Below, one piece after another: positions 46,778-52,027 of a stretch of 64,000 nucleotides of DNA. The notes below the pieces were generated by a model. It saw only the letters and a program-made list of their open reading frames with translations, had not been told where the DNA came from and made no database searches. Origin of the DNA: a virus. Position 1 is the first letter of the stretch, and every line of letters starts with the position of its first letter. Location: IMG/VR virus record IMGVR_UViG_3300023084_000003; one strand, written 5' to 3'. Both the position numbers and the translations under genes were made by a program.

Positions 46778-47743
46778 ATGGAACTACTCACATTATGGAG
46801 CCTTGTCGGCTTCCTGCTTGCTGCATATGCGGTTATAGCGAACGATTCAGTGCAAACTCTCGGCACGTGGATGGCATCTAACAATGAGAGATTTAACTAT
46901 AAAGTACTATGGGCAGCGGCTTCTGCTGTTCTTCTAGCAACACTCTGGTACGGTTGGAGTGTTAATGGTGGCGACATTAGTTATGGTCGTTTGAATAAGA
47001 TCCCGTGGCAAGAAGTACAATGGTACCACGCCGCAGCACCAGCTATTCTTGTTGCTTTAACACGAATTGGTGTACCAGTTTCAACATCATTCTTAGTTCT
47101 ATCAGTATTTGCTTCAACCTTTGTGTTGGAAAAAATGTTGATGAAATCTATTATGGGTTATGGCGTAGCAGCCTTATTTGCTTACGCAGTATGGTTTGCC
47201 ATTAATAAGTTTGCTCATAAATGGTTTGATGAAACTCAACCAGTAAGTGAAGGCAATAAACGTTTTTGGCGGATTGCTCAGTGGGTTGCTACTGGCGGAT
47301 TGTGGTGGACTTGGTTGTCACATGACATGGCAAACATTGCGGTATTCCTCCCGCGTCAAGTACCTGTAGATCTTATGATTTTGATCTCATTTGTATTTGT
47401 CGGTGGTTTGTTCTTTATGTTTAGAGAACGTGGTGGTAAGATCCAACAAATCGTTTTGGAAAAACATAACACAAGATATGTTCGTTCAGCTACGTTGATT
47501 GACTTATTCTATTGGTTGTGTTTATACTTCTTTAAAGAGCTAAACGATATTCCTATGAGTACAACTTGGGTATTCGTTGGTTTGCTAGCAGGTCGTGAAC
47601 TTGCGATGGCTACATACTTTGGTAAGAAGAAAACAAAATCTGTATTTCCTCTTGTAGCGAAAGACTTTGGAAAGATGATGGTAGGACTTGGAGCTTCAGT
47701 TGCTCTTGTACTAATGGTACATTACATTATCAATCCAGTGTGA
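46778..47743 (+). CDS. multi-TM protein, PiT (inorganic phosphate transporter)-like
   Basis: About 10 hydrophobic helices; IANDSVQ and SHDMANI resemble the two PiT GANDxAN signatures; PVSTS motif; upstream Pho box. Confidence 0.6.
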   Translation: MELLTLWSLVGFLLAAYAVIANDSVQTLGTWMASNNERFNYKVLWAAASAVLLATLWYGWSVNGGDISYGRLNKIPWQEVQWYHAAAPAILVALTRIGVPVSTSFLVLSVFASTFVLEKMLMKSIMGYGVAALFAYAVWFAINKFAHKWFDETQPVSEGNKRFWRIAQWVATGGLWWTWLSHDMANIAVFLPRQVPVDLMILISFVFVGGLFFMFRERGGKIQQIVLEKHNTRYVRSATLIDLFYWLCLYFFKELNDIPMSTTWVFVGLLAGRELAMATYFGKKKTKSVFPLVAKDFGKMMVGLGASVALVLMVHYIINPV

Positions 47744-47778
47744 CATTTTTGTCAAGTAAAAAAATTTTACAGAAGGGG

Positions 47779-47807
47779 TTGACATTTAACTCCTTTTGTG
47801 TTATATA
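47779..47807 (+). promoter_or_regulatory. sigma70-type promoter for the tmRNA gene
   Basis: GGGG-TTGACA-17nt-TATATA. Confidence 0.7.
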
Positions 47808-47813
47808 TAAGAA

Positions 47814-48212
47814 GTGGACGTTGAAACAAAATAAAAACGGATCGGACCGCGGGGCAGTACCGCGCACCTCCACCATAAACACATGAGGATATAATGAATT
47901 GGGATTGGCACTGGATTAGTTGGTTTAAAGGAACACCTTTTCAATGGGGTGATTTTAGATTCAATAGTGGCAAGCCATATAAAAGTTATAGACTTGGACC
48001 ATTACTTATTCGTGTGTTTATGTAAGCACATGTGTTTATGATGGGGGTGAACAAGGATCGACGGACGGAATAGTTGAGTGGAGTTCACCGTGTTGACCTA
48101 CGTTATTCGGTCAAACAAACTAAATGCAAACGATAACTTTGCACCATCTGGTTACGCACTAGCTGCATAACACAGGGGGCTGGCCACTTGCCTAGCAACA
48201 GAAAAGTGGCAC
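47814..48212 (+). ncRNA. ssrA: two-piece (circularly permuted) alphaproteobacterial-type tmRNA gene
   Basis: Acceptor piece ends GCGG-GGCAGTA-CCGC-G-CACCTCC-A-CCA (47875). Coding piece starts GGGGGTG (48043), giving a G3.U alanine acceptor stem. Tag frame 48126-48170 reads ANDNFAPSGYALAA*. 3' element GCCTAGCAACAGAA. Outer ends approximate. Confidence 0.92.
47894..48025 (+). CDS. 43-aa Trp-rich peptide nested in the tmRNA intervening segment
   Basis: GAGGA RBS at 47885-47889; MNWDWHWISWFKGTPFQWGDFRFNSGKPYKSYRLGPLLIRVFM*. Confidence 0.6.
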   Translation: MNWDWHWISWFKGTPFQWGDFRFNSGKPYKSYRLGPLLIRVFM

Positions 48213-48249
48213 ATAACACATTTAATAAAAGTAATAAGAAAGGGACAGG

Positions 48250-49029
48250 ATGTTTAATAAACTACTAATTACAACAGCATTGGTCTGCGCAGCAGGCTCA
48301 GCAATGGCCGCAGACGTTGGCGGTGAAATTACAACTGAGATTGCAGAAAACGCAGCAGGCAACTGGGGTGCAACAACATCCTTCGACCTAGGTATCGCAT
48401 CAATGGGTACAGCAGTACCTGCATTTGCTGCTATTGATTTGGACATGAACACAGACGGTGATATTACCCTTGATGAATGGCAAATTGGTACAGTAGTAAA
48501 TGGAGATGCAATGATCTCATTCGGAGATCAAGGTAATGTTTGGATCGATTCAGAAGACGGTTCAACATTGGCAGATCCAGCCATGAAAGAATCTATTGCA
48601 GTTAAAGCCCTTGGAGCAAAAATGGGTATTAGCTGGAAAGATATCGAAGCGGATGTAACAGAAATCGAAACAGTAGCCGGTATGTACGAAATGAATCTTG
48701 GTCTTGTTAATCTACAAGCCGCAGGTTCATACAACATGGTTACTGAAAACTTTGCGATTGGTTCTCGCAGTGATTATCTGTTGAACGACAATATTGGTCT
48801 TGGTGCTGCAATCACTTATGATTCAGGATCAGAAGATATTGGTTTTGAAGTAGATGCTGGCGCTTACGGTGCTACAGTATTCGTAAACGGCGATCAGGAT
48901 GAAATGCTTCAAAACGTAGGTGGTTCTTACACTTACGGCTTCATCGGGCTTGAGCTCGAAGCAGGAGCGTCATACAACCTAGACAGCGAAGAATTGACAC
49001 CTACTGCATCTGTTTCGTTCAGCTTCTAA
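48250..49029 (+). CDS. outer-membrane porin-like beta-barrel
   Basis: Signal peptide AMA-A; alternating amphipathic strands; C-terminal ASVSFSF (terminal Phe, BAM signal). Confidence 0.75.
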   Translation: MFNKLLITTALVCAAGSAMAADVGGEITTEIAENAAGNWGATTSFDLGIASMGTAVPAFAAIDLDMNTDGDITLDEWQIGTVVNGDAMISFGDQGNVWIDSEDGSTLADPAMKESIAVKALGAKMGISWKDIEADVTEIETVAGMYEMNLGLVNLQAAGSYNMVTENFAIGSRSDYLLNDNIGLGAAITYDSGSEDIGFEVDAGAYGATVFVNGDQDEMLQNVGGSYTYGFIGLELEAGASYNLDSEELTPTASVSFSF

Positions 49030-49060
49030 GCTGAGATAAACTTGCAGAAAAAACTTAGTA

Positions 49061-49083
49061 GAGGGGCCTTTCGGGGCCCCTTT
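49061..49083 (+). terminator. intrinsic terminator
   Basis: AGGGGCC-TTTCGG-GGCCCCT followed by TT. Confidence 0.7.
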
Positions 49084-49129
49084 GGTCATTATAAATAAAA
49101 ATGAAAACTTTCATCAGCGGAGGCTTATA

Positions 49130-49681
49130 ATGTCACTAAAATTGAAAGAGCTTACATGGGCTCACCACCAATCTGCTGAACGGCGTAAGTTCGCTAAACA
49201 TCTTATTAGCGGCAAAATTGAGCCTAAACTCTATCACAAATTTTTATGTTGCCAGTACTTAAACTATGAAGCACTGGAATCTAAAGTAATCATTCCCCCA
49301 AATTTACAACCAATTAAAAGGTCCAATCGCATTTGGACTGATATTCGTGAGCTTGAAAACGAATATGGATTAGAGCCAGATGGTAACTATCCGCCTTCTG
49401 TAGAGAAGTACACCAATCATATACATGCACTTGCGGAGTGGGATGCTAACGACAGACTGTTGGCTCATATGTACGTAAGACATTTTGGTGAACTACATGG
49501 CGGGCAGATCATCAAAAAGAAAGTGCCTGGCTCAGGCAAGATGTATGAGTTTGAAGGAGATACTAAGATCCTTATTGAGGAATTCCGCAAACTCTTGCAT
49601 GATGATATGGCAGATGAAGCTAAGATCTGTTTTGACTTTGCATCAGAGTTATTTGATGAGTTGTCTGAAGAAATTAGTTGA
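49130..49681 (+). CDS. hemO: heme oxygenase (HemO/Ho1-like)
   Basis: LKELTWAHHQSAE (proximal His), AHMYVRHFGELHGGQII; late promoter at 49090-49097; start placed at ATG 49130 (track ORF starts at 49082). Confidence 0.9.
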   Translation: MSLKLKELTWAHHQSAERRKFAKHLISGKIEPKLYHKFLCCQYLNYEALESKVIIPPNLQPIKRSNRIWTDIRELENEYGLEPDGNYPPSVEKYTNHIHALAEWDANDRLLAHMYVRHFGELHGGQIIKKKVPGSGKMYEFEGDTKILIEEFRKLLHDDMADEAKICFDFASELFDELSEEIS

Positions 49682-49705
49682 CATTTACCCATATCTTGAT
49701 ATAAT
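49678..49705 (+). promoter_or_regulatory. sigma70-type promoter
   Basis: TTGACA-16nt-TATAAT overlapping the hemO stop. Confidence 0.7.
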
Positions 49706-49740
49706 ATAATTGTTAATAGCCAAACGTAGGAGGTATCCTT

Positions 49741-49911
49741 ATGCATAAAGAAGTTGCATTCGAAGAAGTAGCCACTAAACCACTTACACGTCAATTTCGA
49801 ATGGGTAAGAGTGAATCTGCTAGAAAGCGACGAAGATCCTTGAAAGAGGTTCGTGAAACTAGGCTAATGAATACTTTTGCAAAAGCACGTAGAGCAAGAA
49901 AGCGTAAATAA
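49741..49911 (+). CDS. 56-aa highly basic (Arg/Lys-rich) protein
   Basis: AGGAGGT RBS; ...ARKRRRSLKEVRETRLMNTFAKARRARKRK*; TAATG coupling to the next ORF. Confidence 0.65.
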   Translation: MHKEVAFEEVATKPLTRQFRMGKSESARKRRRSLKEVRETRLMNTFAKARRARKRK

Positions 49912-50087
49912 TGGAAACTTTAACTGTTCACGAAGATCCCCAATCCGGGGATCTTTACTTACAATTCACAGACGATCTTCTAGAAAAATTAGGATGGGAA
50001 CCAGGTGACAGCCTTGCTTGGATTGATAACGAGGACGGAACTTGGACACTAACAAAGCATGACACATCCACTATGGAAGAGACTTAA
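49911..50087 (+). CDS. AbrB/MazE/SpoVT-like small DNA-binding protein
   Basis: GDLYLQFTDDLLEKLGWEPGDSLAW...GTWTLTK pattern; manual translation. Confidence 0.65.
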   Translation: METLTVHEDPQSGDLYLQFTDDLLEKLGWEPGDSLAWIDNEDGTWTLTKHDTSTMEET

Positions 50088-50745
50088 TCAGTACTCTGAT
50101 TTTATATTTAATCAATTTGATGAGCACTTCGAGCGCTGGGACAATCCTAGTTACACCGAAGATATGCACTTCAAAGGTTGGACCGATACCTTTTGGCATT
50201 CCGATGAAGTGTATAAAGCTCATCTAAAAACAATCATTCCTGAAGATGGCAAGGGCCTCTGGTTGATGCACGTTAACGTGTTCCCAGAGAGATACATTGA
50301 ACTGCCTATCTTAGGATTTGATATTGTAGCGGGGCCAAGAAAGATCACCGGATCTTTTATGGACTATAGTCCTTTACATGGAGTTCCGCACCCTTACTTA
50401 GATTTTATGGCTCGAACAGTAGAAGGATTGGAGTGGAACAAACAAAGAGAACTTCCACCTTGGGCGCAAGAAATATTTTCAGAAAACATGATCGCCGTTG
50501 GTAACATAAACACCGACGAAGAATTAGATCAGTTTATAGATGTAACTTCACAACTTCTAGAACACTATTTAGAAAACTTAGAAGCTAACGCGTTTGCGTC
50601 ACATCGAGATACTTTACCAGCACTAAACAAATACTGCAAGAACCAAAAAATGAATCCTCACTTGCACAGATCTATCGAAGCTATGGGCATATCAAAAGCC
50701 GATAAAAATCGATACGTCGACAATGTTTTATTTGAGGAAAGATAA
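50059..50745 (+). CDS. pcyX: ferredoxin-dependent bilin reductase, PcyX/PcyA family
   Basis: AHL...LWLMHVNVFP...LPILGFDIVAG...TGSFMDYSP...YCKNQKMNPH; near hemO. Confidence 0.8.
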   Translation: MTHPLWKRLNQYSDFIFNQFDEHFERWDNPSYTEDMHFKGWTDTFWHSDEVYKAHLKTIIPEDGKGLWLMHVNVFPERYIELPILGFDIVAGPRKITGSFMDYSPLHGVPHPYLDFMARTVEGLEWNKQRELPPWAQEIFSENMIAVGNINTDEELDQFIDVTSQLLEHYLENLEANAFASHRDTLPALNKYCKNQKMNPHLHRSIEAMGISKADKNRYVDNVLFEER

Positions 50746-51101
50746 TGGATTTATTCTTTGGACTGTTACTTAGTGCACACGTTGGTTTGGAAAATGAATA
50801 CAATTGGATCCATCCTCATGTAGGAGCTTACTTAAATGAAGATCGTACTATAAGTGTCGGTACATACTTCAATAGTGAAAAGAAAATGAGTACATATGCT
50901 GCTTACACGTATGATTTTGGACCGCGGTTCTTTATGGAAGTTGGAGCAGTTACTGGATATACGGGTGCAGATGTAAAGCCAATGGTGAAGTTAAACTATA
51001 ACAATTATTTCATTGCGCCCACCGTTGAAACGTTTCTACGAAACGGAGATATCGATAGACAAAACGCTGGGCTCATATTCGGATTAGAATGGAGACAATA
51101 A
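50745..51101 (+). CDS. small outer-membrane beta-barrel-like protein
   Basis: G-x-YFNS...STY...GAVTGY strand pattern; C-terminal FGLEW. Confidence 0.5.
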   Translation: MDLFFGLLLSAHVGLENEYNWIHPHVGAYLNEDRTISVGTYFNSEKKMSTYAAYTYDFGPRFFMEVGAVTGYTGADVKPMVKLNYNNYFIAPTVETFLRNGDIDRQNAGLIFGLEWRQ

Positions 51102-51746
51102 ATGGCTTTCTTAGTTCACCCTTTGCCACCTGTTAATGTTTATGTACGAAAAGAATACTTGTATGATTTAGAGAAGGGGCACGGTGAATATACTCCAGGA
51201 ATCTGGATTAGTGTTAAAAGCACAATGCACAAAGCTCTTTATTTCGAAACACTCTTAACTGATTATGGAGCGCTATATGACAAACTTCCTATATCGGCAT
51301 TTGTTTGGAAAATACCGCACGGCGAGATTCTTCCGCTTGATGTGCTACAGCTTTGGGATTGTTTTGATTACGACATTACCGTTGTCCAAAAACCCATCTT
51401 GTCTAGATGTGAATTTTTTGGAAAGGACAAACGTATGCATGCCGGTGAGTATGAGTTCACCATCGATAATTGTCACCGCGATTCTTCCATCATCGACACA
51501 AATTTCAGTGAACACGACCCCGAACACAAGTCTTTCAACGTTATACGACTTGACAACGGTCAATTCGCTGCTCAGCCTAACAATCGGGTTATCTGGCGTG
51601 ATAGCTCCTTAACTCCTGATAAACTATTACGTCCTGACTTTAAAGTATGCACTCAAAACTATGCGGTTGAAACAGAACCTAAATGGTCTGTTGGCCACAC
51701 TGATGAATGGCAATATAAAACTAAGGAAGAAAGCGAAATGGAATGA
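51102..51746 (+). CDS. conserved hypothetical protein
   Basis: 214-aa intact ORF; YVRKEYLYD, YDKLPISAF, AQPNNR. Confidence 0.75.
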   Translation: MAFLVHPLPPVNVYVRKEYLYDLEKGHGEYTPGIWISVKSTMHKALYFETLLTDYGALYDKLPISAFVWKIPHGEILPLDVLQLWDCFDYDITVVQKPILSRCEFFGKDKRMHAGEYEFTIDNCHRDSSIIDTNFSEHDPEHKSFNVIRLDNGQFAAQPNNRVIWRDSSLTPDKLLRPDFKVCTQNYAVETEPKWSVGHTDEWQYKTKEESEME

Positions 51747-52027
51747 TATTAACTATTACGGAAAATGCTAAAGCTTATCTAAAAAAGGTTGGCAAACCTA
51801 ACGTATCACTTACGGTAAAAGGTGGAGGCTGTTCTGGTTTTCAATATGAGTGGGGAACCACGGAAGAAAGTCCAACTATTGAAAATTTATGGTTAGATCC
51901 AATGGCTGAAATGTTTGTTTTTGGCTGCACAATAGATTATGTGGAAGAGCTTGGTGGTTCTTATTTAAAAGTAATTAACCCTAATGCCACTGCTTCATGT
52001 GGCTGCGGAGAAAGTTTTGCTGTCTAG
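51743..52027 (+). CDS. HesB/IscA/SufA Fe-S assembly protein
   Basis: GGGCSG, TIDY, NPNA...CGCGESF. Confidence 0.92.
   Translation: MILTITENAKAYLKKVGKPNVSLTVKGGGCSGFQYEWGTTEESPTIENLWLDPMAEMFVFGCTIDYVEELGGSYLKVINPNATASCGCGESFAV

Follow-up and report, generated by a model that had tools for sequence, protein, structure and literature searches.

In the permuted tmRNA of alphaproteobacteria (RF04321/RF01849), which also occurs in phages such as Methylophilales phage Melnitz (PMC9004378), an acceptor piece, an intervening segment (IVS) and a coding piece follow one another, with a CCA end and a tag ending in ALAA. RNase P, together with RNase III/E and exonucleases, generates the ends of tmRNA (PMC3968760), and the mature molecule lacks the segment (PMC11915505). 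Two-piece ssrA is known in about 50 aquatic phages. In a survey of 97,179 tmRNA sequences, the only IVS contents mentioned are a tRNA-Ala gene and a repetitive element, and ORFs are not among them (PMC11915505); the Melnitz paper never mentions the segment (PMC9004378). ORF-bearing IVSs are described in 23S rRNA genes (S23p; Coxiella, Leptospira, Brucella), where a stem-closed insert with an ORF sits in a stable-RNA precursor; these IVSs are excised without ligation, occur sporadically and have moved horizontally (PMC4990558). In the hyperplastic regions of T4-like phages, PeSL-mediated shuffling uses short conserved flanks as exchange points for unrelated small genes (PMC4122927).

The window, by which we mean the whole 64,000-nucleotide stretch analysed, belongs to the genome of a T4-like phage, as seen from a DNA polymerase with 45% identity to cyanomyophage gp43 and from genes for gp33, gp59, heme oxygenase and bilin reductase near ssrA. 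The original prediction placed a two-piece tmRNA at this locus, and its layout holds throughout, with the CCA ending at 47875, G1 of the coding piece at 48043 and an IVS of 167 nt. ARAGORN calls a permuted tmRNA (tmRNA*) here, and both Rfam models, tmRNA_permuted RF04321 (117.6 bits, cut-off 47) and alpha_tmRNA RF01849 (105.7 bits, cut-off 50), match over their full length, which establishes the alpha type. The parts of the gene are as follows.

47779..47807, forward strand: probable sigma70-type (early) promoter, TTGACA, 17-nt spacer, TATATA; read from the sequence, its function putative
47814..47875, forward strand: tmRNA acceptor piece with T arm, 3' strand of the acceptor stem and CCA (RF04321 and RF01849 alignments, ARAGORN)
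47876..48042, forward strand: IVS, an exchangeable cargo slot (sequence, Rfam, swap analysis, survey)
48043..48213, forward strand: tmRNA coding piece (sequence, ARAGORN, Rfam)
48126-48170, forward strand: tag reading frame ANDNFAPSGYALAA, of the form (A)NDN...ALAA, with its stop (sequence, ARAGORN)
within 48043..48213, forward strand: 3' hairpin of the coding piece with the conserved CAACAGAA motif (sequence, ARAGORN, Rfam)

The T-arm/CCA acceptor piece lies 5' of the coding piece and the acceptor stem is of the 7-bp alanine type, so that the locus is a member of the permuted tmRNA family, in which phage two-piece genes were already known. A duplicate acceptor end was looked for in the window and none was found. 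We considered and rejected a tmRNA containing a group I intron, as the insert sits after the CCA of a permuted gene and Rfam gave no intron family match. An integron gene cassette or an ssrA-integrated island was likewise set aside, since no integrase-sized ORF of that kind adjoins ssrA and the stem arms vary between cargos.

Most related ssrA genes are also preceded by a TTGAC-type -35 box and an AT-rich -10 element; the promoter of the window was missed in a consensus scan because the scan demands T at position 6. A 15-pair hairpin (window 47768-47800) overlaps the -35 box and may end transcription of the membrane-protein gene upstream; terminator and promoter would then form a composite that recalls PeSL motifs. 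That upstream gene (46778-47743) encodes a 321-aa membrane protein without a Pfam match, from a cluster of 698 members. Downstream (48250-52027) lie genes for a porin-like 259-aa protein with a signal peptide, heme oxygenase, bilin reductase and an IscA-like protein, and the genes on both sides form a host-physiology island. The alpha-type tmRNA and the hemO/bilin-reductase pair suggest that the host is an alphaproteobacterium, yet Melnitz also has an alpha-type tmRNA and its host is OM43.

The IVS of the window departs from its described bacterial counterparts, which in our sample have a median length of 28.5 nt and are ORF-free, in being long and in coding for protein. Its gene lies where the original prediction had located it, and consists of two elements.

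47885..47889, forward strand: Shine-Dalgarno (SD) sequence GAGGA (sequence)
47894..48025, forward strand: 43-codon ORF with the family motif FNSGxPYxSYRxGP (selection, family, AlphaFold2)

An ATG ORF of at least 43 aa arises by chance in 1% of shuffles. Homologous loci were collected with a DNA scan of IMG/VR (30 loci) and a profile scan (57 loci). On a tree of the 23 distinct IVS-resident alleles, dN/dS is 0.14 (p 3e-20), with 58.5 synonymous against 36.5 non-synonymous changes by tree-based counting, and variable columns are distributed 7/13/26 over codon positions 1/2/3. None of the 23 alleles is broken by a stop or frameshift, and each of the remaining five frames carries stops in 20-23 of them. 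Because the loci had been found via sequence motifs, the count was redone on 15 codons used in no search, for which dN/dS is 0.22 (p 7e-8). The purifying selection and intact frames on which the original prediction had staked the gene are thus both present in homologous phage ssrA loci. A profile search of 1.84 billion representatives returned 41 matches at 50% clustering, of which 39 were aligned; these 39 are credible short proteins with FNxGxPYxSYRxGP in common. Three matches (P0055, P0061, P0077) were dropped from the family as repeat or pheromone-like, and P0004 (407 aa), found in the exact-match cluster, is unrelated and was left out. Distant members of the family stand on their own as ordinary genes among strings of small ORFs, in some cases next to primase/helicase genes of phage type. 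With purifying selection in one frame, an SD and a start, homologs and a product predicted to fold, the comparisons and the model indicate that the nested ORF is a real, selected gene.

A gene shaped by selection elsewhere could still ride untranslated in the IVS, as a silent passenger like S23p of Coxiella. The partly occluded SD, the homologs outside tmRNA genes and the Coxiella precedent would fit such a history. However, the dN/dS estimate was taken from IVS-resident alleles only, dS among them is about 0.5, no allele is broken and the SD is mostly kept, and we regard silent residence as very improbable.

The predicted product is a basic 43-aa peptide of 5.4 kDa (pI 10.2, 28% aromatic), which AlphaFold2 models as a four-stranded beta-meander (pLDDT 93) with no transmembrane helix. 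Searches of Pfam, PHROGs and the ESM Atlas gave it no named family (best score 0.81, lead level only). Fold searches with the model returned only generic beta-meander matches (best Z 4.4, to WD40 blades; viral matches at E 0.12 or worse), and therefore no function follows from them. A tblastn search with the peptide against cultured phages gave no match; a sample of 401 genomes from the class to which a Planktomarina genome belongs also yielded no family member, in a search that had no positive control and so does not speak for absence. Our leading guess is that the protein may be an early cytoplasmic host-modulating factor, binding a partner via beta-strand addition or binding a membrane surface.

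To place this IVS among others, we ran an unbiased scan with one acceptor-piece pattern and took IVS counts from the matches listed. Among these, the 108 distinct viral IVSs have a median length of 79.5 nt and reach 266 nt, and the 110 bacterial ones have the short median given above. An ATG ORF of at least 24 codons over at least 60% of the segment, our definition of ORF-filled, is present in 26/108 viral IVSs (shuffle mean 5.2, maximum 11) versus 0/110 bacterial IVSs among the matches listed, although in about 5 of the 26 calls (e.g., L037, L059, L113) the frame has probably arisen by chance within an RNA cargo. For bacteria, this bears out the earlier statement that the segment is normally short and non-coding. 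The 84 IVSs of at least 45 nt among the matches listed fall into 54 cargo families. Three other pairs of cargo ORFs have pN/pS of 0.14, 0.29 and 0.45, and by this measure other cargo ORFs too look to be under selection. Matches to the acceptor pattern extended to MAG contigs that carry the labels Saccharibacteria and Bacteroidaceae (L250, L269, L282, L284); these may reflect mis-binned contigs or a one-piece gene whose T arm is similar.

Many IVS cargos are ORF-less and GC-richer, and Rfam gave no family for those in 20 loci. Such cargos occur in L043/L045/L086/L102, L106/L149, L143/L153, L046, L054, L100, L096, L113 and L105; some carry tRNA T-loop-like GGGTTC(A/G)A motifs, without an Rfam match in the loci scanned. 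They are possibly a collection of new small RNAs.

Cassette exchange is visible in both directions. The ORF cassette of the window is 97-99% identical between tmRNA genes that are about 65-70% alike, and in 17 pairs the cassettes are at least 97% identical while the tmRNA pieces are less than 72% alike and the flanks unrelated. Conversely, 15/46 pairs of near-identical tmRNA genes carry unrelated cargo. The tmRNA of L032/L034 matches that of the window at 98% in the acceptor piece and 94% in the coding piece, and the downstream gene of L032 is 90% identical to the window's, but its IVS is an unrelated 85-nt non-coding segment. The cassette borders coincide with the IVS ends, and in divergent swapped pairs the identical flank mostly spans just 8-16 nt to the left of the cassette and 4-20 nt to its right. 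The correlation between cassette and tmRNA identity is nevertheless above zero (Spearman 0.37). IMG/VR contigs could hold mis-assemblies at conserved flanks; the swapped pairs recur in independent contigs. Taken together, these comparisons indicate that the IVS is an exchangeable cassette slot, a point beyond what the original prediction had seen.

Of the 66 long viral IVSs among the matches listed, 64 have a closing stem of at least 7 bp (4% in shuffles), and the arm sequences vary from cargo to cargo. In the window, the perfect 12-bp inverted repeat 47874-47885 / 48029-48040 is present as originally described. An end-anchored Watson-Crick stem of at least 12 bp occurred in 0/100,000 shuffles; this test replaced an unanchored inverted-repeat test, which stood at 6% because local palindromes get counted. 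Two elements of the stem concern us here.

47874..47885, forward strand: 5' arm of the closing stem, which prolongs the acceptor helix in the precursor and takes in the CA of the CCA tail together with the SD's initial G
48013..48022, forward strand: 3' arm of the ORF cassette, formed by the last ORF codons and the only 3' arm in most relatives

Since the CA of the CCA tail lies within the 5' arm, 10 bp are left after excision. The 3' arm sequence occurs twice (48013-48022 and 48031-48040), and folding predicts that the first copy is the pairing partner in the excised piece and the second copy in the precursor. On the simplest reading of the folding energies, selection on the closing stem would reflect its service as a clamp that helps the tRNA-like domain to fold. 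In the cargos of L114, L145, L124, L129, L077 and L199-L210 the SD itself is the 5' arm of the closing stem; in the subfamily L199-L210 the SD AAGGA sits inside the arm.

We consider it probable that permuted tmRNA genes of aquatic T4-like phages have in their IVS a strongly transcribed slot that is tolerant of cargo, that the slot here holds a real small gene whose mRNA would be the uncut precursor, and that cassettes would recombine between phages. Any insert would be tolerated provided that an end-to-end stem joins the two tRNA-like halves for host processing, and the cargo here would be a small phage gene driven from the early promoter of ssrA. Translation would most likely take place on the nascent uncut precursor, ahead of or in competition with stem closure. 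Host tRNA-processing nucleases would then cut out the IVS, RNase P at G1 and RNase E/III plus exonucleases at the CCA, and the excised IVS would decay, so that each transcript may yield a short burst of protein and one mature tmRNA.

The position of the stop codon points to the uncut precursor. In 21/23 alleles it lies 8-13 nt inside the coding piece, past the expected RNase P cut, and therefore the excised RNA would be a non-stop message there and full-length protein can come from the uncut precursor only. The computed energies for opening the initiation region (-18 to +12) are in line with early translation: in the window, 6.8 kcal/mol is needed in the early nascent transcript, 10-17 kcal/mol with the 3' arm present and 12.3 kcal/mol in the excised piece. 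In the relatives the predicted cost is 5-11 against 13-24 kcal/mol. Overall, opening the region is predicted to be roughly half as costly while the 3' arm is still missing. In four salt-marsh metatranscriptomes, contigs cover the IVS and bridge both junctions, one with an exact match across the IVS/coding junction (47992-48136) and one from a related strain across the CCA (47838-48030). These contigs fit precursor RNA, with DNA possible, as they tell neither strand, ends nor level, may include DNA, and come from four runs that are possibly one campaign. In three runs, contig cover is absent just upstream of the promoter, and such holes in contigs prove nothing.

The original prediction proposed two roles for the segment, one of which is a hairpin-protected mini-mRNA. 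On this reading, the excised piece would itself be what the locus mainly makes, a message or small RNA shielded by its stem and freed by tRNA-processing enzymes, like mitochondrial tRNA punctuation. The allele of the window could serve as such a message, as its excised segment has an SD, an ORF and a stop and is predicted to refold into a closed stem. The stop lies at or before G1 here and in about 16/26 cargo ORFs, the many GC-richer ORF-less cargos recur as families, which suggests that released RNA matters, and the IVS is well represented in the RNA contigs. The proposal is weakly supported: the non-stop state of 21/23 alleles after RNase P cleavage extends to the Melnitz ORF, the SD of the excised piece is occluded by the closed stem and its initiation region is harder to open, and the analogous 23S IVS of Coxiella is rapidly degraded (PMC4990558). 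We thus regard a main role for the excised segment as unlikely, and retain the uncut precursor as the probable mRNA.

The other proposed role is control of tmRNA maturation by translation of the ORF. As a selected switch, it would tie tmRNA supply to translation status, with ribosomes keeping the stems open or the two 3' arms alternating. The footprint of the 30S subunit does overlap the 5' arm, ribosomes in most alleles have to traverse the 3' arm and enter the acceptor stem, and in one subfamily the SD lies in the stem and a synonymous change in the 3' arm compensates for it. As a selected function, however, this role is not supported. Near-identical tmRNA genes carry non-coding segments, such as the unrelated 85-nt IVS described above, or segments of 9-30 nt; conservation extends to the amino-acid sequence and fold, beyond a mere open frame; and the ORF persists intact outside tmRNA genes. 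Because maturation-competent genes have non-coding or tiny segments and the protein sequence is conserved, a regulatory link to maturation is quite unlikely. Some competition between ribosomes and folding would be an unavoidable side effect and does not speak for a selected role, and the second 3' arm is explained as a deletion remnant.

Comparison with sister alleles accounts for this remnant. In most relatives the IVS is 149 nt long, the last ORF codons form the 3' arm and the frame continues into the coding piece. The sister alleles of the window in the tree, L155 and L161, carry tandem cassettes, the ORF followed by a 109-nt non-coding cassette that stands alone in L109. The window retains a trace of it.

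48023..48042, forward strand: emptied second cassette; of the 109-nt non-coding cassette of L155/L161, both arms are left and about 89 nt of the body are gone (alignment)

From this emptied cassette come the TAA of the ORF itself and the second 3' arm at 48029-48040. The alignment indicates that the allele of the window goes back to an array of two cassettes in which the second, non-coding one has lost its body, which explains both the duplicated 10-mer and the stop gained inside the IVS without a switch. The recurring structured cassette of 106-109 nt (L155:2630-2740, L161:2630-2740, IVS of L109) has no Rfam match and is a candidate new RNA motif; it is also seen as loose ends in the salt-marsh RNA run X4.

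Other loci capture the cargo outside the slot. L193/L194 carry a decayed acceptor piece and the ORF, followed by a new promoter and ssrA. In L186:1005-2140, an orphaned acceptor piece with the ORF cassette is followed by a reverse-strand HNH endonuclease gene (PF01844, E 1e-4) and a new promoter; the new complete permuted ssrA, 3' of the HNH gene, has a 32-nt IVS. The ORF lies immediately upstream of ssrA in L196, L208, L212 and L213, as do homologs of five other cargos, and copies occur in loci without tmRNA (L165, L170, L176, L182), some with scraps of tmRNA flank. L165 has the ORF on both sides of a thyX-like gene (1687-1836 and 2501-2647), L176 an ORF insertion with a duplicated target near 2501, and L170 and L182, two 50% GC phages, the ORF with scraps of the tmRNA 5' end near 2501.

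Under the cargo-slot model, cassettes would pass between phages via recombination in the short conserved flanks. An identical stretch of 4-16 nt in the flanks offers little to homologous recombination, and therefore exchanges may be rare or assisted. Assistance by ssrA-cutting homing endonucleases or a dedicated recombinase in place of plain short-homology recombination would be compatible with the expression model, and concerns mobility only. The very short flanking identity, the coincidence of cassette borders with segment ends and the HNH gene of L186, placed between the orphaned acceptor-plus-cassette and the new complete ssrA, lend it some weight. Against this, stem arms that differ between cargos offer no fixed recombinase site, no nuclease or integrase ORF adjoins ssrA in the window, and L186 is the single HNH-linked case among the loci examined. 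We find such a route doubtful and keep short-flank recombination as the working assumption.

The locus resembles two described systems beyond its own family, working like both and being a member of neither. With 23S rRNA IVSs it shares the terminal stem; those have one ORF family, apparently untranslated and decaying in Coxiella, and are excised by RNase III (PMC4990558). The tmRNA slot, unlike these, is a pre-existing part of a permuted gene, takes dozens of unrelated cargos and holds an ORF under purifying selection. S23p-type membership fails on location, in ssrA and not in an rRNA gene, and on the product, which is modelled as all-beta without a Pfam match and not as a four-helix bundle. 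The 15/46 near-identical tmRNA pairs that differ in cargo amount to PeSL-like shuffling in its working. Here, however, the flanks are two tRNA-like RNA halves and not promoter-terminator PeSL motifs, and the cargo, which includes ORF-less RNAs, would be cut out at the RNA level. In 2009, Mao et al. reportedly described rickettsial palindromic elements that insert and swap in permuted ssrA, a hotspot of mobile sequences; those elements are bacterial repeats, whereas the cargo of the window is a self-contained phage gene with SD and ORF. We found no description of protein-coding cargo in a tmRNA IVS in the searchable literature, which leaves subscription journals largely outside; in this scope the earlier remark that no tmRNA with a nested gene had been described is upheld.

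The Melnitz genome shows how such a gene escapes notice. Inside its annotated SsrA (MZ577097.1; L334:1070-1253) we find a 142-nt IVS with a GGAG SD and a 54-codon ORF at 1089-1253 that is homologous to the cargo of L089, ends about 40 nt inside the coding piece and is unannotated in GenBank. The ssrA annotation hides such genes because callers mask everything under the ssrA feature, as in this record, with the result that early small proteins and ORF-less RNAs, a class encoded by abundant aquatic phages, are being missed. As a tentative extension, the tmRNA spacer might be a general plug-in expression platform, in which host tRNA-maturation enzymes release a loaded mini-mRNA or structured RNA (dozens of uncharacterised proteins and RNAs) and cargos can be stacked in arrays; a cargo with its stop in the coding piece would be switched off by maturation and its last non-stop product tagged by its own tmRNA, giving a self-timed early burst. 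The permuted layout, as an insert-tolerant and strongly transcribed slot, may offer a partial answer to the commonness of two-piece ssrA in aquatic phages. One transcript would serve as both mRNA and stable-RNA precursor, for which Melnitz with its OM43 host H5P1 provides an experimental system.
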